Sequence record: MT533174.1
DNA: 64,000 nt
Source: Escherichia phage CJ20
Reading direction: 5' to 3' (one strand)
Part shown: piece by piece, positions 1,741-62,412 of the stretch
Position numbering within the stretch: the first letter of the stretch is position 1
Layout: every line of letters starts with the position of its first letter
The notes under the pieces: model-generated
The model's database searches: none
What the model saw: the letters and a program-made list of their open reading frames with translations, nothing else
Told to the model about the DNA's origin: nothing
Translations under genes and position numbers: made by a program

Positions 1741-4455
1741 ATGCAAGAATTTTATTTAACTATCGAACAAATCGGTGACAACCTGCTCGAACGATATATT
1801 GACAAGAATGGTCATGAACGTGTTCGTGAAATCCCTTATGCTCCATGCTTGTTTATGCACGCCCGAGAAGACCAGGCTGCAAAGTATACAGACATCTATA
1901 ATAAAGGTTGTGTGAAAAAAGAATTCGATTCCATGCGTGATGCATCCCAGTGGATGAAGCGAATGAATGACATGGGTCTCGAAGCTATGGGTATGGACGA
2001 CTTTAAACTCGCATACTTGTCCGACCGTTACCCACACGAAATCAAATATGATTCAAGTAAAATCCGTGTTGCTAACTTCGATATCGAGGTGACATCTCCC
2101 GATGGGTTCCCCGAACCGTCTGAAGCACGTCACCCTATTGATGCCCTGACGCACTATGATTCGGTAGACGATAAATTCTATGTCTTTGACCTTTTGGACT
2201 CACCATACGCCACTGTGGAGCAATGGTCTATTGATATTGCTGCTAAGCTGCAGGAAGATGGTGGTGATGAAGTCCCGGAAGAAATCCTGGAAAAAATTGT
2301 TTATATGGCTTTCGATTCAGAAGAAGAAATGCTCCAGCAGTATTTGGTATTCTGGAACGAGAAAACTCCGGTTATGTTAACTGGTTGGAACATCGAGAAG
2401 TTTGATATTCCATATATCTACAACCGCCTTAAAAATGTATTTGGTGAAGCTACAGCAAAACGTCTGAGCCCGCATCGTCGTACAAAAGTTAAGGTCATTA
2501 ACAACGGCTTTGGTGAAGAACAAGAAATCATTCAGATTCTGGGTATCTCTGTTCTGGATTATCTGGACCTGTATAAAAAGTTCAGCTTCACAAACCAACC
2601 GTCTTATTCGTTGGATTATGTTGCGGAATCTGAACTGGGTGTTGGTAAACTCCCGTATGATGGCCCAATTTCTAAACTGCGCGAATCAAATCACCAGCGG
2701 TATATTTCTTATAACATCATCGACGTTTATCGTGTTGTGCAGATTGACCGTAAGCGGCAGTTTATTAACCTGAGTCAGTCAATGGGTTATTATGCAAAAA
2801 TGCAGATTCAGTCTGTATTCAGCCCAATCAAAACTTGGGATGCGATTATCTTTAACAGCCTGAAGACTCAAAACAAAGTCATTCCGGAAACCAAATCGCA
2901 TGTTCGTCAATCGTTCCCTGGTGCATTTGTTAAGGAACCTATTCCGAACGCATACAAATATGTAATGAGCTGTGACTTAACATCTCTGTATCCGAGCATC
3001 ATCCGACAGATTAACATCAGTCCAGAAACGATTGCCGGTTCATTTGCTCCAGCCCAGATGTATGAATACATCGCAGGAACTGCTGACCGTCCATCTGATA
3101 CATTTAGTTGTGCTCCAAATGGTATGATGTATTTTAAAGATGTTGCGGGTATTATTCCGACAGAAGTCACCAAGGTGTTTAATCAGCGTAAAGAACACAA
3201 AGGCTATATGCTTGCGGCTCAACGTAATGGTGAACTGATTAAGGAAGCTCTGCGTAATCCAGGAACTGGTACAACCGAGCCTGAAGTTGATTATCGTCAT
3301 GACTTTGATGACAATATGAAAACAACCTTGCATGGTCTGAATCAAACAGTCCTAAATGGTATGTTGTACAAAGCGCAGATGGAAGAAGTTGCAGGCATGA
3401 CCGCGCAGATTAACCGTAAACTACTTATCAACAGTTGTTATGGTGCTCTGGGTAATATCTGGTTCCGTTACTTTGACCTGCGAAATGCAACCGCGATTAC
3501 ATCTTTCGGACAACTTGCATTGCAGTGGATTGAGCGTAAAGTTAACGAATACTTCGATAGTGTTTGCGGGACAAGCGGCGAAACTTATGTGTTCTATGGC
3601 GATACTGACTCCATTTATATCCAGTGCGATAACCTGATTAAAAAGGTTGGTGGCGAATCTAAATTCCGCGATACAAACCACCTGGTTGACTTCATGGACA
3701 AGTTCGCGAAAGACCGTCTGGAACCGGCAATCGATAAAGCTTTCCGTGAGCTGGCTGAATACATGAACAACAAACAGCACCTTATGTTTATGGACCGTGA
3801 GGCGATTGCATGTCCTCCACTGGGTTCTAAGGGTGTTGGTGGGTTCTGGACGGCGAAGAAGCGTTATGCGTTGAACGTGTACGATATGGAAGGTACACGA
3901 TATGCTGTTCCGAAACTGAAAATCATGGGTCTGGAAACTCAAAAGTCGAGTACTCCAAAGGCATGTCAGAAAGCTCTGAAAGAATGTATCCGCCGTATGC
4001 TGCAAGAAGGTGAAGAATCTCTGCAGACATACTTCAAGGAATTCAATAAGGAATTTAATGAGCTTAACTACATGACCATCGCAGGTGTATCATCGGTTAA
4101 CAACATCCAGAAATATAATGAAGGCGGTTTCCCTGGATTTAAGTGTCCGGCCCATATCAAAGGTGTGCTTGCATATATGCGTGCAACTAAAGGTCTGAAG
4201 ACTGTTCCGCAAATCATGGAAGGGGAAAAGGTGTATGTACTTCCTCTTAAAGTCGGCAACCCGTTTGGTGAAACCGTGATTGCATGGCCATCTGGGATTG
4301 AACTCCCGATTGAAATCCGTGACCAGGTTCTGCAGTGGATGGATTACAGTGCCTTGTTCCAGAAGACTTTTGTTAAGCCATTAACAGGTTTCTCTGAAGC
4401 TGCAAAGGTTGATTACGAAAAGAAAGCAACTCTTTTTGATATGTTTGACTTTTAA
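1741..4455 (+). CDS. 43: DNA polymerase gp43 (family B)
   Basis: 904 aa; exonuclease motif FDIEV, polymerase motifs SLYPSII, YGDTDS; end-to-end similarity to remembered T4/RB69 gp43. Confidence 0.97.
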   Translation: MQEFYLTIEQIGDNLLERYIDKNGHERVREIPYAPCLFMHAREDQAAKYTDIYNKGCVKKEFDSMRDASQWMKRMNDMGLEAMGMDDFKLAYLSDRYPHEIKYDSSKIRVANFDIEVTSPDGFPEPSEARHPIDALTHYDSVDDKFYVFDLLDSPYATVEQWSIDIAAKLQEDGGDEVPEEILEKIVYMAFDSEEEMLQQYLVFWNEKTPVMLTGWNIEKFDIPYIYNRLKNVFGEATAKRLSPHRRTKVKVINNGFGEEQEIIQILGISVLDYLDLYKKFSFTNQPSYSLDYVAESELGVGKLPYDGPISKLRESNHQRYISYNIIDVYRVVQIDRKRQFINLSQSMGYYAKMQIQSVFSPIKTWDAIIFNSLKTQNKVIPETKSHVRQSFPGAFVKEPIPNAYKYVMSCDLTSLYPSIIRQINISPETIAGSFAPAQMYEYIAGTADRPSDTFSCAPNGMMYFKDVAGIIPTEVTKVFNQRKEHKGYMLAAQRNGELIKEALRNPGTGTTEPEVDYRHDFDDNMKTTLHGLNQTVLNGMLYKAQMEEVAGMTAQINRKLLINSCYGALGNIWFRYFDLRNATAITSFGQLALQWIERKVNEYFDSVCGTSGETYVFYGDTDSIYIQCDNLIKKVGGESKFRDTNHLVDFMDKFAKDRLEPAIDKAFRELAEYMNNKQHLMFMDREAIACPPLGSKGVGGFWTAKKRYALNVYDMEGTRYAVPKLKIMGLETQKSSTPKACQKALKECIRRMLQEGEESLQTYFKEFNKEFNELNYMTIAGVSSVNNIQKYNEGGFPGFKCPAHIKGVLAYMRATKGLKTVPQIMEGEKVYVLPLKVGNPFGETVIAWPSGIELPIEIRDQVLQWMDYSALFQKTFVKPLTGFSEAAKVDYEKKATLFDMFDF

Positions 4456-4457
4456 GT

Positions 4458-4487
4458 GTTTACAACGGCAATGGATTGCCGTATGAT
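4458..4487 (+). promoter_or_regulatory. Early sigma70-type promoter (GTTTACA -35, TATGAT -10) with a 6-bp hairpin in the spacer
   Basis: TTTACA 4459-4464, 17-bp spacer containing CGGCAA-TGGA-TTGCCG, TATGAT 4482-4487; upstream of imm. Confidence 0.5.
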
Positions 4488-4524
4488 TACCCCATCAACT
4501 GATGAATAACTTGAGGATATTAAA

Positions 4525-4767
4525 ATGGAAGCATTAATTGCGGGTACTGTTGTTCTTGGTGCAGGTTCTTTCTTCCTGGCTGCACTGGCATATTTTCTGC
4601 CGTGGATTATCGCGCTACTGCGTGGAACCAAAAGTAATTGCGGAATCTTCTTTGTTAACCTTCTGTTAGGTTGGACAATGGTTGGATGGTTTATTGCATT
4701 TATCTGGGCACTTGTTGCTGAACGTAAATCAAACGCACAAGTAATTATCATCAAGGAAGCAAAATGA
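4525..4767 (+). CDS. imm: Superinfection immunity protein Imm-like (two transmembrane helices)
   Basis: 80 aa with two hydrophobic helices; immediately downstream of gene 43 as in T4. Confidence 0.65.
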   Translation: MEALIAGTVVLGAGSFFLAALAYFLPWIIALLRGTKSNCGIFFVNLLLGWTMVGWFIAFIWALVAERKSNAQVIIIKEAK

Positions 4768-4907
4768 AGATAATTACAATTATTGTACTGATTGCATTTT
4801 TTAGTATGTCAATCTATTGGGCAATAATGACTCCACATATGATTCCAACTTTAATTTTGGGTTGGGTATTTTTGGGGCTCCAAGCTCGCTATGAATGTTT
4901 TAATTAG
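4764..4907 (+). CDS. Small membrane peptide (47 aa)
   Basis: ATGA overlap with imm stop; single hydrophobic helix; below ORF-track size cutoff. Confidence 0.35.
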   Translation: MKIITIIVLIAFFSMSIYWAIMTPHMIPTLILGWVFLGLQARYECFN

Positions 4908-4915
4908 GAAGCAAA

Positions 4916-5419
4916 ATGAAAAAGTTAGCTATCGCAGCTGTTATGCTGCTATCTGGTTGTGCTTACCAGGGTGATGTTGTTAATGCCAACGAGATTGGTA
5001 AAGCGCGAATTGCTGCAGACCGTCAGGTGCATAATGGTTCCTTTGATTTCAAAGGTGGTACTGGACTTATCTACAAACGCGACAACAATCAATGCGGAAA
5101 CAACTGCGCGAAATATGCTCAACAAGAAATTGAGTACAAACGCGAGCAAGCTGCGAAGCATGACGAAATCATTGCCAAGCTGGAAGCAGAAACCAAGCGA
5201 CAAAATGACCTGGATACTGTTAACCAGATTTCACAGGTCTGCATGTCATATATCAATATGCAGATAAACATCATGCGCGCAGAAGCTTATCAGGCAGCGG
5301 AGACGGGTTCTCCAAAAGCTAATGAGTACCGCGATATGTATCAGCGTTCTGCTCAAAACCGTCTGAGCTATATTAATAAATGTGTAGCTAAAGAGAAAGC
5401 ACGCCAAGGTATTAACTAA
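4916..5419 (+). CDS. Predicted lipoprotein, function unknown
   Basis: 167 aa; signal peptide ending in lipobox LLSGC; coiled-coil-like Lys/Glu/Gln-rich body; SD GGAAGCAAAATG. Confidence 0.6.
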   Translation: MKKLAIAAVMLLSGCAYQGDVVNANEIGKARIAADRQVHNGSFDFKGGTGLIYKRDNNQCGNNCAKYAQQEIEYKREQAAKHDEIIAKLEAETKRQNDLDTVNQISQVCMSYINMQINIMRAEAYQAAETGSPKANEYRDMYQRSAQNRLSYINKCVAKEKARQGIN

Positions 5420-5440
5420 ACAAACTGCGAGAAGAATATT

Positions 5441-5569
5441 ATGATTGGTATGTTATTGATTAGTCTATGGCTGTTGTCTGCATTTGGTATTGGGTTTATG
5501 TACTGGTGGGACAAACGCCAGACCCGTAAGATTGTTGAACGTGCAATTAATCGTGGATTCAATCGTTAA
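5441..5569 (+). CDS. Small membrane peptide (42 aa)
   Basis: ATG at 5441, hydrophobic N-terminus, basic C-terminus; short, no homology evidence. Confidence 0.3.
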   Translation: MIGMLLISLWLLSAFGIGFMYWWDKRQTRKIVERAINRGFNR

Positions 5570-5595
5570 TTGCTCTAAAAATACAGTGATATAAT
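5568..5595 (+). promoter_or_regulatory. Putative MotA-dependent middle promoter for uvsX
   Basis: MotA-box-like TTGCTCTAA (TGCTC 5571-5575) placed 19 bp before TATAAT 5590-5595. Confidence 0.4.
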
Positions 5596-5648
5596 TATCC
5601 TATCTTAAACCTGTGAGAAAAATATAATGGTGCCTATGGAAAAAATGA

Positions 5649-6827
5649 ATGTCTATTGCAGATTTGAAATCCCGTTTGATTAAAGCTTCTACATCCAAAA
5701 TGACCGCGACTCTTACCAAGTCCAAGTTCTTTAATGATAAAGATGTAGTTCGTACAAAAATCCCGATGCTGAACATTGCAATCAGCGGTGCACTAGATGG
5801 TGGCATGCAGTCAGGTTTGACTATTTTTGCTGGTCCGTCAAAACACTTTAAATCCAATATGGGTTTAACGATGGTCTCTGCATATATGAACAAATACCCC
5901 GATGCAATCTGTTTGTTCTATGATTCAGAATTTGGTATCACAGAAGCCTATCTTCGTGCAATGAAAGTTGACCCGGAGCGTGTTATCCACACACCAATCC
6001 AGTCGGTTGAACAATTGAAAGTTGATATGGTTAACCAGCTTGAAGCAATTGAGCGTGGTGAAAAAGTCATTATCTTTATTGACTCAATCGGTAACATGGC
6101 ATCGAAAAAAGAAACAGAAGATGCGATGAACGAAAAAGTCGTTGGCGATATGACTCGTGCTAAATCCCTGAAATCTCTGTTCCGTATTGTTACTCCATAT
6201 TTTAGCATCAAGGATATTCCTTGTGTCGCGGTTAACCATACAATCGAGACGATTGAGATGTACAGTAAAACCGTTATGACCGGCGGTACAGGTGTTATGT
6301 ATTCCGCGGACACCGTATTCATTATCGGCAAACGCCAGATTAAAGAAACTGGTAAAGAACTTGAAGGCTTCCAATTTGTTCTGAACGCCGAAAAATCTCG
6401 TATGGTCAAAGAGAAAAGTAAATTCTTCATTGATGTAAAATTCGATGGCGGTATTGACCCGTATTCTGGCCTGCTTGATATGGCAATGGAAATCGGATTT
6501 GTGGTGAAACCAAAAGTTGGTTGGTATAACCGTGAATATCTTGATGTTGAGACCGGTGAAATGGTCCGCGAAGAAAAATCATGGCGCGCAAAAGATACTA
6601 ACTGCACCGAATTCTGGGGCCCGCTGTTCAAACACGAACCTTTCCGTGATGCAATCAAACGCCATTACCAACTGGGTGCAATCGATAGCAATGCTGTTGT
6701 TGATGCCGAAGTTGATGCGCTTATTGCCTCCAAGGTTGAAAAATACACTGCTCCTGAAGGTAAGACAAAACCGTCCGCGGCAGATATCGAAAACGATTTA
6801 GATATGATGGAAGACCTTGATGAATGA
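5649..6827 (+). CDS. uvsX: UvsX RecA-like recombinase
   Basis: 392 aa; Walker A-like GPSKHFKS; strong similarity to remembered T4 UvsX. Confidence 0.95.
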   Translation: MSIADLKSRLIKASTSKMTATLTKSKFFNDKDVVRTKIPMLNIAISGALDGGMQSGLTIFAGPSKHFKSNMGLTMVSAYMNKYPDAICLFYDSEFGITEAYLRAMKVDPERVIHTPIQSVEQLKVDMVNQLEAIERGEKVIIFIDSIGNMASKKETEDAMNEKVVGDMTRAKSLKSLFRIVTPYFSIKDIPCVAVNHTIETIEMYSKTVMTGGTGVMYSADTVFIIGKRQIKETGKELEGFQFVLNAEKSRMVKEKSKFFIDVKFDGGIDPYSGLLDMAMEIGFVVKPKVGWYNREYLDVETGEMVREEKSWRAKDTNCTEFWGPLFKHEPFRDAIKRHYQLGAIDSNAVVDAEVDALIASKVEKYTAPEGKTKPSAADIENDLDMMEDLDE

Positions 6828-7161
6828 TATCGATTTATCTGATTTAGATAATTTCGAGAAAGATGCGGAGGGAGCTAAGGCTCCTTCTGTACCTTACTAC
6901 GAAAAAAGTTTGGAGATTATCCGGCAATCCATGGGAACTGTACGGCAGGAAATTCTGTTATCACTTCCCGATGGGTCCAGTCACATTGTGTACGTAACCG
7001 GAATTAAAATTGAACCATCTGGAAAAGTTTCAGTTGATTTCGGCACCCCTTCTGAAGACCGCAAAGCGGAGCTTGCTGTGCATGTAGAAAAGTGTGTTAC
7101 AATGCAAATACAAGATGAAATTGATAAAATTAAAATGAAAAAGAGGTGGTGGAAGTGGTAG
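6817..7161 (+). CDS. 40: gp40-like protein (head vertex assembly factor in T4)
   Basis: 114 aa ORF between uvsX and gene 41, the gene 40 position in T4; assignment by synteny and size only. Confidence 0.55.
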   Translation: MMNDIDLSDLDNFEKDAEGAKAPSVPYYEKSLEIIRQSMGTVRQEILLSLPDGSSHIVYVTGIKIEPSGKVSVDFGTPSEDRKAELAVHVEKCVTMQIQDEIDKIKMKKRWWKW

Positions 7162-9954: not shown

Positions 9955-10248
9955 ATGAAAAAGTTATTAATCGCAGCAATTCTTACCGTAGCATCATGTG
10001 GTACAGCTCCAGTTACTGCTGGACTTGATAAAGACCTTTGTGAGTGGTCTATGACCGCCGACCAGACTGATGTTGAACATCAGATTTATGCTGATATCAT
10101 GAACATTACTAAACGTGACCGTCCAGATATGGTTAAAGAAGTATCTGACCAACTGGCTTCTGGTGACGTTATGCAGTATAACTATGTTCTGTATTGCGAT
10201 GCTTCATTTGACAACAGCAAGATTGTTCAATGGGTTACAGGTGAATAA
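9955..10248 (+). CDS. sp: Spackle-like periplasmic protein (signal peptide)
   Basis: 97 aa, same length as T4 Sp; N-terminal signal peptide; motif DKDLCEWSMTADQT recalled from T4 Sp; located between genes 41 and 61 as in T4. Confidence 0.55.
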   Translation: MKKLLIAAILTVASCGTAPVTAGLDKDLCEWSMTADQTDVEHQIYADIMNITKRDRPDMVKEVSDQLASGDVMQYNYVLYCDASFDNSKIVQWVTGE

Positions 10249-31995: not shown

Positions 31996-32237
31996 AACTT
32001 TTTAAAGACATTGCAGTTGGTGAAAAATTTGTCCTGGGTAATGGTCAACAACTGATTCGCATTTCGCCTTTAATGGATTCAAATGAACATCCTGTGCGCA
32101 CTGAAAACTGTTTGGATTATCCTTTTTATCAGAAGCGTTTTGCAATTGAAAATAATACTGAGTGCTTCACAGTTGATGAACTGATGGAATCATCAGAAGA
32201 AGTTGACTTGTGGGATGGTGTGGTAGACCCTGAATAA
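31992..32237 (+). CDS. Hypothetical protein (81 aa)
   Basis: ATGA overlap with upstream ORF; acidic C-terminus. Confidence 0.45.
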   Translation: MKLFKDIAVGEKFVLGNGQQLIRISPLMDSNEHPVRTENCLDYPFYQKRFAIENNTECFTVDELMESSEEVDLWDGVVDPE

Positions 32238-32252
32238 ACTGAGGAAAATATT

Positions 32253-32597
32253 ATGTCTAAAGTATTTTTTGGTAATGCTAAAGTTATGTTCTTTAAACAG
32301 ATTAGCCTTCAGGAGGCGTCGGAGGCATTCAATCAAAGTATGATTCCTGACGTACATCCAAAAGTTATGACGAGTGCTGATTTCGTTTTCGTCCAAGACC
32401 CGGAAACAGGCTTTTATCGGTTCATTAAATTTCGTATGAGTATGGAGCCAGGTTATCATAGTGCTTACTACGTGAGTTATGAAAATGTTATCAAAGAATT
32501 GCGTAATACCTATAAGCGCGCTTTGACCCCGCTGAATAAGGTGTATAATGCTTCCTTTTATACGAGCGGATTTATTTTAGAACAACTTCAAAAATAG
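32253..32597 (+). CDS. Hypothetical protein (114 aa)
   Basis: SD GAGGAAAATATTATG; no homology recognised. Confidence 0.45.
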   Translation: MSKVFFGNAKVMFFKQISLQEASEAFNQSMIPDVHPKVMTSADFVFVQDPETGFYRFIKFRMSMEPGYHSAYYVSYENVIKELRNTYKRALTPLNKVYNASFYTSGFILEQLQK

Positions 32598-38269: not shown

Positions 38270-39052
38270 TTACACACGGCTTCCGTGGATGGTTCCTACG
38301 TTCTGCCAAGAAGGAGCATTGCCTGTAACGGCTGCACCGCCGGCCCCACCGCCTGATGTTGAGACTTTCTTGCCCCAACCATTTCCCCCGGCAGCAGCTA
38401 CGTTACCACCATTACCGGCACCCCACTGTCCACCAGCGTTACCACCTGAACCAGCCGCAGTTAGAGACGCGTTACCACCCGGTTGATACCCAACGGAGCC
38501 ACCGAGTCCGAATGGACGGCCGCCACCACCACCACAGGTGGCATTAGTTGGCCATCTATTTTGCAATGATGCAGCGCCGCCGCCACCGCCGCCACCGGCG
38601 ATAGAACCATTATTACGAATACGGAGTTTAGTTCCGGCAGCGTTATGGATTGCTGTACCACCTGCTTGGCCTGCAGAACCATTGGTAGAACCGTTACCTC
38701 CTCGACCATAAACAGTTACACCGCTGTTAATAGTAAGCTGTATATACGCATTAGGTAAGTTGCTAGGGAATTCCAGGCAAGGGTTTCCTCTGCTGTTAGA
38801 TACTAAGTCACCAGTGATTGTAATAACCACTGGCGCACCACCTTGGGCTCTCATCCAGTTAATAAGGGAGTTTCTATCATAATTATGGTTGGCGCCTATA
38901 GATAGATAAATTTCTTTTGATTGTCCTGCCATCGAACCCATCCAACCCGGTACTGCAACTCGCACATCTCGCATTGCCGCATCCATCCAACGTTGTCCCG
39001 TTTCATCTACGGCAGATTGTCCAATCCAACCAGGAACACCTACAATTGCCAT
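38270..39052 (-). CDS. 38: Tail fibre adhesin gp38 (T2-type, glycine-rich motifs)
   Basis: 260 aa; conserved N-terminus MAIVGVPGWIG and several poly-Gly motifs separated by variable segments. Confidence 0.85.
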   Translation of the reverse strand: MAIVGVPGWIGQSAVDETGQRWMDAAMRDVRVAVPGWMGSMAGQSKEIYLSIGANHNYDRNSLINWMRAQGGAPVVITITGDLVSNSRGNPCLEFPSNLPNAYIQLTINSGVTVYGRGGNGSTNGSAGQAGGTAIHNAAGTKLRIRNNGSIAGGGGGGGAASLQNRWPTNATCGGGGGRPFGLGGSVGYQPGGNASLTAAGSGGNAGGQWGAGNGGNVAAAGGNGWGKKVSTSGGGAGGAAVTGNAPSWQNVGTIHGSRV

Positions 39053-61277: not shown

Positions 61278-61781
61278 ATGGATATGCAACTGATTTCAAA
61301 TGAAATGATTGTCAATGAATATGGTGACCGTCATGACGGAATTTATGTCTATAAAGGGACCAAGAAAATTGGTCTCATGACTGACTTGCGGAAAAAACTC
61401 GCCTCCAATAAAAAGTTGAAGGCGAAACAAAAAGAATATCGCGATAAAAAATCAGAAGAGCGGAAAGAAGCACTGCATGAATCTGTTCCTGAAATGGTTG
61501 ACTTCTTAAAGAACCATTTGGTTAAATATGATGCAGAAGTGTTCATCAATCAGACCCAACCTAATGTGCATATCAATGGATGTGTTTGTTATGTTGTGGT
61601 TGAACCCCTGACACTTCAACACCGCCTGGGAATTAAACACCCAGTGTTAACCCAGGATGATATGGCGGATGAAGTTGGTAATCAGTTCCGCATTTCAGCA
61701 TCTGACAGTACAAATCACATCCTCCTGAATGGTTTATCCCAGGATGATATTGTTGAGGTAATCATCAAGTTATGCAAATAA
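61278..61781 (+). CDS. alc: Alc, inhibitor of transcription on cytosine-containing DNA
   Basis: 167 aa from ATG 61278 (SD GAGGA); position between rnlA and pseT as in T4; sequence recalled as Alc-like. Confidence 0.8.
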   Translation: MDMQLISNEMIVNEYGDRHDGIYVYKGTKKIGLMTDLRKKLASNKKLKAKQKEYRDKKSEERKEALHESVPEMVDFLKNHLVKYDAEVFINQTQPNVHINGCVCYVVVEPLTLQHRLGIKHPVLTQDDMADEVGNQFRISASDSTNHILLNGLSQDDIVEVIIKLCK

Positions 61782-62125
61782 GTAATCTCACTGCAGGGCT
61801 TATGCTCGCCCTGATAGTAACTGCTGGTAGTGGTTTCTATCTAAAAGCAAAAGTGGATAATCTCAAGACAGCGGTGGCGGAAGTCACCAAAGTCGCAGAA
61901 GATAATGCGAAAAATCTGCAATCAGTAAAAGACCAGGTTAATCAAATTAATCTCCTTGACCAACAGCGCCAGGAATATGTTGAACTCCTGCAGAAGGAAA
62001 ATGATAAACTTCGCGCAGATGCAAAACGTGCTAAGGTTGTGGCTGCGAAGCCTAAATTAGTTGAAAAACAGATTAATCAGTCATTTGATAAGTTCGCCCA
62101 GGACTTCCAGGAGCTCACCAAATGA
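61772..62125 (+). CDS. Inner-membrane spanin (i-spanin, pseT.3-like)
   Basis: 117 aa; N-terminal transmembrane helix then coiled-coil; followed by lipoprotein partner. Confidence 0.7.
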   Translation: MQISNLTAGLMLALIVTAGSGFYLKAKVDNLKTAVAEVTKVAEDNAKNLQSVKDQVNQINLLDQQRQEYVELLQKENDKLRADAKRAKVVAAKPKLVEKQINQSFDKFAQDFQELTK

Positions 62126-62412
62126 TGAAATCTATCATGGCAGTATGTTTGGCTATTGGACTCGTTTCATGCGCCCAGAAGCCCGTTGTGGAGCCCACAA
62201 TCCAAGTTCATCCTAATTGGCCTGTTGCATTGGCTGATTACAAACAGCAATGGGAAGTTAAGGTAATTGATGGTCAAGTCTGGGTTGGTATGCCTTTTGA
62301 AGCATCGCAAGAATTCAGGATTTGGATGAATGATGTAAAAAGGTATGTACATGACCAAAAAGGTATGTTATGTTATTATCGTTCTGAACTAAAAGAGGAA
62401 CGTTGCAAATGA
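62122..62412 (+). CDS. Outer-membrane spanin lipoprotein (o-spanin, pseT.2-like)
   Basis: 96 aa; signal peptide with lipobox LVSC; ATGA overlap with i-spanin. Confidence 0.7.
   Translation: MMKSIMAVCLAIGLVSCAQKPVVEPTIQVHPNWPVALADYKQQWEVKVIDGQVWVGMPFEASQEFRIWMNDVKRYVHDQKGMLCYYRSELKEERCK

Follow-up and report, generated by a model that had tools for sequence, protein, structure and literature searches.

The 167-residue protein encoded at positions 4916-5419 of Escherichia phage CJ20 (MT533174.1) is a longer and divergent relative of the T4 lipoprotein Imm.1, and we put the probability that it is an outer-membrane lipoprotein of the Imm.1 family at about 0.9. Positions refer to the window, by which we mean the whole stretch of 64,000 nucleotides that was analyzed. 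The gene is not new, being a divergent member of a family that has been known since the T4 genome was annotated. For decades, superinfection exclusion by T4 has been put down to two proteins, Imm and Spackle. We tentatively propose that the lipoprotein, which shares a gene cassette with Imm, also serves to protect the envelope of the infected cell.

The local gene order is that of the gp43 DNA polymerase (1741-4455), imm, a 47-aa peptide, the 167-aa ORF, a 42-aa ORF, uvsX (5649-6827), gp40 and gp41. Gaprivervirus genomes (VR7, SP18, DK-13 and others; Straboviridae, Tevenvirinae) match the region at 92-99% nucleotide identity, and the window is itself from a VR7/SP18-like Gaprivervirus. Our ORF calls agree with a first-pass annotation of the sequence, which had placed the gene directly after imm and a 47-aa membrane peptide. 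The relevant features of the window are as follows.

4458..4487, + strand: T4-early-type promoter-like element, GTTTACA-N17-TATGAT (promoter scan, 10/12 matches)
about 4490..5570, + strand: mosaic cassette of imm, the 47-aa peptide, the lipoprotein gene and the 42-aa ORF, with the early promoter at one end and the uvsX promoter at the other
4525..4767, + strand: imm, which encodes the inner-membrane protein of superinfection immunity and opens the cassette (Pfam PF14373, Imm_superinfect, 1e-17; phrog_1039, 2.9e-30)
4764..4907, + strand: 47-aa membrane peptide with two hydrophobic segments (phrog_3610; RB69 orf054c; an unannotated T4 ORF)
4916..5419, + strand: lipoprotein gene, 167 aa, divergent homologue of T4 imm.1 (ORF, phrog_1754 match, hhalign, dN/dS)
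4916..4960, + strand: signal peptide (aa 1-14) and lipobox Cys15 (codon 4958-4960), read from the sequence, with L12, G14 and C15 invariant
5036..5107, + strand: beta-hairpin and Cys pair, the core most conserved in the long (LP-type) members (invariant or near-invariant alignment columns)
5096..5416, + strand: helical body, with a long helix (aa 61-130) and a C-terminal helical bundle (aa 100-164) (AlphaFold model)
5441..5569, + strand: ORF for a 42-aa single-pass membrane protein, variable and last in the cassette (ORF call)
9955-10248: Spackle (sp) homologue (phrog_1586, 3e-43)
61772-62125 and 62122-62412: overlapping i-spanin and o-spanin pair (phrog_739, 6e-36; phrog_812, 3e-40)

The lipoprotein ORF begins with an ATG codon that is preceded by an AGGAAG Shine-Dalgarno sequence 6 nt upstream. 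Its dN/dS is 0.044 in comparison with VR7 and 0.077 in comparison with VR25; these values argue that it is not a chance ORF and indicate strong purifying selection on the gene. A search with the window protein retrieved relatives from 121 phage records.

The relationship to T4 Imm.1 was established by profile comparison. The window protein matches phrog_1754 at 6.6e-47, with residues 1-161 aligned to positions 2-147 of the 148 in the profile, and T4 Imm.1 matches the same profile over its full length at 5.2e-42. The annotation table of the CRISPRi-ART screen of T4 also assigns imm.1 to phrog_1754 (PMC11879866 supplement). Comparison of T4 Imm.1 with a 40-sequence alignment of window-type proteins using hhalign gave a full-length match (96.5-97.2% probability, E values of 7e-10 to 9e-11, 122 aligned columns) in which the C-terminal cysteines are paired (IENYC with ISQVC, and NSYNSCV with SYINKCV). 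A plain HMM search was significant for the N-terminal 30 residues only. T4 Imm.1, a protein of 125 aa, is itself a lipoprotein (LAG followed by C), and the C-VAQGPVVNQSDVGK with which it begins resembles C-AYQGDVVNANEIGK in the window protein. Against Pfam DUF5481 (PF17578), T4 Imm.1 scores 5e-72, whereas the window protein gives no match at E <= 1. The window protein thus belongs to a longer, divergent Imm.1 branch that lies outside the narrow T4-type Pfam model.

Two deep searches from the window-type protein found only ~40 clusters. Broken down by search, 7 clusters were retrieved in one, 19 with a profile, and 23 among 1.84 billion scanned representatives. Every genomic context that could be inspected among them was T4-like, and T4 Imm.1 itself was missed by these searches; the link to T4 came from inspection of the equivalent T4 locus, where the order is 43 - imm.1 - imm - (small ORF) - 42. 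The window-type proteins gathered by the deep searches contain no Pfam domain, and scans of the lipoprotein against Pfam, NCBIfam and PADLOC yielded only sub-threshold or signal-peptide matches. A search with T4-type Imm.1 added a further 657 phage records, of which ~500 are at least 95% identical and 155 are variants of ~32% identity that include the proteins of the RB69-like phages mogra, phiC120 and ST0. All family members gathered here come from T-even phages of enterobacteria and are always encoded just after the DNA polymerase gene, with the window-type proteins distributed among phages of Escherichia, Serratia, Enterobacter, Erwinia and Edwardsiella. Some of the names under which family members are deposited appear to be annotation errors, namely 'iduronate sulfatase' in RefSeq for T4 imm.1 (6637-7014 of the T4 locus sequence) and 'capsid and scaffold protein' in phages P8 and PSD2001.

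The clear lipobox claimed in the first-pass annotation can be read directly from the sequence (LLSG followed by C15) and fits a PROSITE-type lipoprotein pattern. The N-terminus, MKKLAIAAVMLLSG followed by C, consists of two Lys residues, a 9-residue hydrophobic core, and then the lipobox L-S-G-C15, and the same pattern identifies a lipobox in 39 of 40 family members. In enterobacteria, the sorting of lipoproteins follows the Lol +2 rule, in which the residue after the lipidated Cys is read. This residue is A, V, Q or H among the 40 family members (Ala in the window protein) and is never Asp, and under the Lol rule an outer-membrane location is therefore predicted. The window phage encodes a second lipoprotein, the o-spanin at 62122-62412 (lipobox LVSC).

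The mature part of the window protein is rich in A, N, Q, K, E and R. The Lys/Glu/Gln-rich body noted in the first-pass annotation is likewise borne out, with these three residues accounting for 37 of the 153 mature positions, and AlphaFold gives a long helix. In the AlphaFold model, a disordered linker and a short helix precede the beta-hairpin (residues 41-55; strands 41-46 and 50-55), which is followed by a 70-residue helix (61-130) and a confident C-terminal bundle; pLDDT values exceed 90 for residues 100-160 and are low, at only 40-57, in the N-terminal half. The core motif of the long members is G41-x6-G48-[TS]-G50-x2-Y53-x-R55-x2-N58-Q59-C60-G-x-N-C64, and its GGTG motif is absent from T4 Imm.1. 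The part of the long helix that spans residues 61-100 is a variable spacer. Fold comparison revealed no similarity to any solved structure, or to any viral predicted structure outside the family, and a sequence search of the PDB returned nothing meaningful. A sequence that resembles the conserved hairpin of the lipoprotein (GGTGLIYKRDNNQCG) occurs in a 1550-aa metagenomic protein (P0037) with nine tandem Ig-like repeats, each of which carries GGGTGLTYTPxxNYCG; kinship between these repeats and the hairpin was considered and dropped, as so short a motif probably recurs in the Ig-like repeats by chance.

Two cysteines, Cys109 (5240-5242) and Cys156 (5381-5383), are invariant and align with C89 and C120 of T4 Imm.1 in the hhalign comparison. 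Across the 40 family sequences, the number of mature cysteines is 4 or 2 and never odd, and the residues of the C60-x3-C64 pair are either both present or both absent. Because C60 and C64 are gained or lost as a pair, we infer that they form a disulfide. Two putative disulfides, C60-C64 and C109-C156, would fit the oxidizing environment of the periplasm.

The promoter-like element is situated directly 3' of the gp43 stop codon and upstream of imm, and is the probable start of the cassette transcript. Every lineage examined has this GTTTACA-N17-TAnnAT element before its first cassette gene: in 11 related loci it comes after the gp43 stop codon and precedes imm or the lipoprotein gene, whichever is first, and in T4 it is found upstream of imm.1. 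A 6-bp hairpin (4466-4481) lies within the spacer of the element, and its stem is compensatory between lineages (CGGCAA/TTGCCG in the window; CCACA/TGTGG in JS98, CBH8 and others); the hairpin could be a conserved RNA or DNA structure in addition to the promoter. On the right-hand side, the cassette is bounded by a T4 middle-promoter-like site ahead of uvsX (5571-5595), which is composed of a MotA-box-like TGCTCTA, 11 nt, and TGaTATAAT. The 47-aa peptide is kept across T-even genera with the signature MIPTLIxGW...QxKYxCFN, and its T4 counterpart is located between imm and 42, at about 6376-6227 on the minus strand of the T4 locus sequence. The 42-aa ORF, which matches no Pfam or PHROG profile, can be read in VR7 although it is not annotated there. 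EAWsc9 has lost it by a clean deletion, and in VR25 an unrelated ORF for another small membrane protein takes its place.

A comparison of the window with VR25 demonstrates the mosaic character of this region. Nucleotide identity is 40-81% in ~4490-5570, as compared with mostly 93-100% in the flanks, and returns to 98-100% at the uvsX promoter. Likewise, dS is 0.8-2.0 inside the cassette and 0.16-0.32 in gp43 and uvsX. The drop in identity and the parallel rise in dS indicate that the block from imm to the 42-aa ORF has been exchanged as a unit between close relatives. Unlike T4, JS98, RB69, CBH8 and CIP9, the window phage lacks, in the interval from gene 43 to uvsX (4455-5649), both the dCMP hydroxymethylase gene (gene 42) and any gene for glucosyl or arabinosyl modification; such genes are thus elsewhere in the window phage or absent.

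The first-pass annotation had suggested that the lipoprotein and imm may form an envelope-protection module that differs from the imm/sp pair of T4. The first half of this suggestion is partly upheld, in that the lipoprotein gene is grouped physically, and probably in transcription, with imm and the small membrane peptides and is swapped with them as a block, but T4 has the same module. The second half does not stand, since the window contains sp, the lipoprotein is homologous to Imm.1, and T4 has the same trio after gene 43. The window phage therefore carries imm, sp and the lipoprotein gene.

The arrangement of these genes varies among T-even genomes. The order 43-imm-peptide-lipoprotein was found at 8 loci (Gaprivervirus, Dhakavirus and one unclassified metagenomic contig), and the lipoprotein gene follows 43 without imm at 10 loci (Winklervirus, Kanagawavirus, Pectobacterium phage PM2 and metagenomic contigs). 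In 9 of these 10 the 47-aa peptide is encoded further downstream, and the remaining locus (L008) has no detectable copy of it. One metagenomic contig has the order 43-lipoprotein-imm, and T4 has 43-imm.1-imm-peptide. Thus, the early-cassette slot directly downstream of gene 43 is used in 18 of 18 loci examined, plus T4, and a scan of IMG/VR contributed no more than two further contigs, which are laid out alike. In RB69, both imm and the lipoprotein gene are missing from the slot after gene 43.

Whole genomes were assembled for Serratia phage CBH8 (Winklervirus) and Enterobacter phage CIP9 (Kanagawavirus). Searches with an Imm HMM and with the motif GWTxxGW detected no Imm in either, although the HMM was narrow and home-made and a very divergent Imm could be missed. 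In both genomes, the lipoprotein gene fills the position of imm after gene 43, and no other cassette gene except that of the small peptide can be recognized. The presence of the lipoprotein in genomes without a detectable Imm indicates that it does not need Imm, and the Imm.1/lipoprotein family is found more widely than imm among the T-even genomes examined. CIP9 also has no convincing Spackle. At its Spackle locus, between gp41 and primase (32067-32420), CIP9 encodes a 116-aa secreted protein whose match to the Spackle model, the sole one in this genome, is confined to residues 1-24 and covers the signal peptide; this protein may be a replaced or highly diverged Spackle.

These observations suggest a model for how the lipoprotein could contribute to envelope protection. 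The lipoprotein would be made early, and its gene would be transcribed along with imm and those of the small membrane peptides from the promoter just past the DNA polymerase gene. It would be anchored in the outer membrane and face the periplasm, with its two predicted disulfides formed, the conserved hairpin near the membrane, and the helical stalk and bundle extending ~10 nm towards the peptidoglycan. In this position it would alter or guard the periplasmic side of the envelope of the infected cell, and T-even phages that arrive later would fail to penetrate the outer membrane or the peptidoglycan, or else the infected cell would withstand lysis from without. The lipoprotein would thereby constitute a third envelope-protection factor beside Imm in the inner membrane and Spackle in the periplasm, independent of both of them and directed at a target common to T-even infections rather than at one receptor.

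A role in superinfection exclusion is plausible in light of the early-type promoter, the early T4 homologue, and the occupation of the imm slot in genomes without a detectable Imm. The idea is reasonable, but it is without homology support, and the position of the gene says little about function where the surrounding region is hyperplastic. To our knowledge, classical T4 genetics credited exclusion to imm and sp alone. Early expression of the window gene is likely, given the conservation of its early-type promoter. In T4, imm.1 is classed as early at both the RNA and the protein level, which is the same class as that of sp (PMC9697503 supplement). Knockdown of T4 imm.1 caused no fitness defect in single infections (PMC11879866 supplement), as would be expected for a factor that acts in competition. 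A previous report merely grouped Imm.1 with the exclusion genes and noted that such a role 'remains to be proven' (PMC5885020). Searches of the literature found no functional study of the Imm.1/lipoprotein family and no phenotype, exclusion included, reported for any member, and three short sequence strings of the family do not occur in the supplement of an accessory-gene screen. We regard as doubtful a more specific version of the model, in which the lipoprotein is a third arm of T-even exclusion at the outer membrane that has an unprecedented fold, targets either the puncturing device or the outer-membrane/peptidoglycan layer rather than a receptor, and is the sole carrier of exclusion in Winklervirus and Kanagawavirus, where no Imm is detectable.

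Alternatively, the lipoprotein could serve the cycle of the phage that encodes it, by stabilizing or remodeling the link between outer membrane and peptidoglycan, by tuning the timing or inhibition of lysis, for instance in concert with the spanins, the holin or the antiholin, or by taking over from Lpp-like tethers in a long infection. The predicted outer-membrane helical stalk of ~10 nm may recall the Lpp-like periplasmic spacers, and the carrier phages keep rI, rIII, t and the spanins. Such a role is nonetheless unlikely, because knockdown of T4 imm.1 has no effect on fitness, because imm.1 is expressed early and not late, and because the lipoprotein gene is unlinked to any lysis gene, with the complete spanin pair located separately at 61772-62412.

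It also seems improbable that the lipoprotein acts in counter-defense or takeover, where it would inhibit a periplasmic or outer-membrane function of the host or of a prophage, such as a protease, envelope-stress sensing, a sensor of abortive infection, or attack by a bacteriocin or T6SS. This possibility would lead one to expect an accessory gene that is expressed early and can be dispensed with on a laboratory strain, as is the case for imm.1 in T4. The family also evolves faster across genera than its neighbors, with 46% amino-acid identity between the window and JS98 as compared with 78% for gp43 and 69% for Imm, and there is a weak NCBIfam match to T6SS immunity lipoproteins, which is confined to residues 4-35, about half of them signal peptide. 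Set against these points, the lipoprotein matches nothing in PADLOC or in any anti-defense family, and the gene is steadily linked with imm and not with known anti-defense loci. In addition, within its genus the protein is near-invariant (dN/dS of 0.04-0.08) and lacks the diversification of an arms race.

A further possibility is masking of the Llp/Cor/TraT type, in which the lipoprotein would bind the periplasmic face of a receptor in the outer membrane, render it unusable by phages, and also save the progeny from loss on cell debris. The design is similar to that of an early outer-membrane lipoprotein in a lytic phage (T5 Llp, PDB 7qjf and 8a60), and the conserved hairpin is predicted to be close to the membrane anchor. 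We nevertheless give this mechanism little chance. The analogy with T5 Llp drawn in the first-pass annotation fails on sequence (BLASTP E = 0.18), on fold and on gene neighborhood. Cor (phrog_1119) matches residues 1-17 only, which are signal peptide (E = 0.022), and has no fold match. The lipoprotein gene is not beside a receptor-binding gene, as the adhesin gene gp38 is 33 kb away (38270-39052, - strand), and the family is kept in phages of five host genera that would be expected to use different receptors.

The sequence of the lipoprotein also does not follow the type of the gp38 adhesin. The best matches to the window gp38 are from VR20, several Dhakaviruses and T2, and those Gapriverviruses whose lipoprotein is 98-100% identical rank below the top 60. 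Conversely, ~90% of the N-terminal domain of gp38 is in common with T2, which has a T4-type Imm.1, and with Dhakaviruses, in which the lipoprotein is ~50% identical. This uncoupling of lipoprotein identity from gp38 identity argues against a receptor-specific blocker. The gp38 adhesin is itself a mosaic: its N-terminal 172 aa are 89-93% identical to those of T2, several Dhakaviruses and VR20, and its C-terminal third is covered by no phage record, although the low-complexity filter of BLAST may hide Gly-rich segments. 

Finally, identity as an o-spanin or another lysis or structural protein, to which the lipobox, the helical content and the 'capsid and scaffold' label in P8 and PSD2001 could point, deserves almost no credence, as no i-spanin partner overlaps the gene, no spanin profile matches, a secretion signal and an early-type promoter do not fit a capsid role, and a complete spanin pair elsewhere in the window, and likewise in CBH8, rules out the o-spanin.

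Envelope protection remains our preferred, if tentative, reading, and part of the probability belongs to functions other than those considered here. If it is correct, the lipoprotein could supply a missing step of exclusion at the level of the envelope, which bears on the question of which T-even phages exclude each other and hence on the design of phage cocktails. Should the function prove unrelated, the correction of the 'iduronate sulfatase' and 'capsid and scaffold protein' names would remain. In either case, an overlooked ORF of T4, imm.1, is now linked with a longer lipoprotein in at least four further genera (Gaprivervirus, Dhakavirus, Winklervirus and Kanagawavirus).

By way of comparison with known systems, TraT of the F plasmid and Ltp of a Streptococcus phage offer a parallel to the proposed role, as both are lipoproteins anchored in a membrane and both keep phage or foreign DNA out of the cell. 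T-even-like phages specific for OmpA are the ones with which TraT interferes, whereas Ltp acts on phages that have already adsorbed and prevents the injection of their DNA. Both differ from the window protein in size and fold and in their plasmid or Gram-positive temperate-phage origin; homology to TraT or Ltp was not detected, and the lipoprotein has no Pfam match at E <= 1. T5 Llp and the lambdoid Cor are, like the window protein, phage lipoproteins whose known or predicted site is the inner leaflet of the outer membrane, and Llp, a product of a lytic phage, appears early in infection. However, their mature forms are ~60 aa long, as compared with about 152-153 aa, and llp adjoins a receptor-binding gene and its product blocks FhuA, whereas the window gene lies between the DNA polymerase gene and imm on one side and uvsX on the other.

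Imm and Spackle share with the lipoprotein the character of early, envelope-targeted accessory proteins. The imm gene has the same promoter and cassette, and Spackle is also periplasmic, contains a disulfide and belongs to the same expression class. The lipoprotein matches neither the Imm family nor the Spackle models (PF25676 and phrog_1586), and it is distinct from both in type, as Imm is an inner-membrane protein with two spans (PF14373) and Spackle is a soluble protein of the periplasm that inhibits the gp5 lysozyme (PF25676). T4 Imm.1 (T4p046, UniProt P18057; DUF5481) differs from the window protein in length (125 vs 167 aa), the latter having an extra helix, the GGTGLxY hairpin with its CxxxC pair, and a longer helical spacer, and the gene order is permuted (imm-peptide-lipoprotein in the window, imm.1-imm-peptide in T4). 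The two proteins nonetheless have in common the PHROG, full-length profile homology, the lipobox, the N-terminal motif C-x2-QG-x-VV-x2-S/E-VG and the two aligned C-terminal cysteines (IxxxC and NxCV), and both are encoded in an early cassette after gene 43 together with imm and a small membrane peptide.
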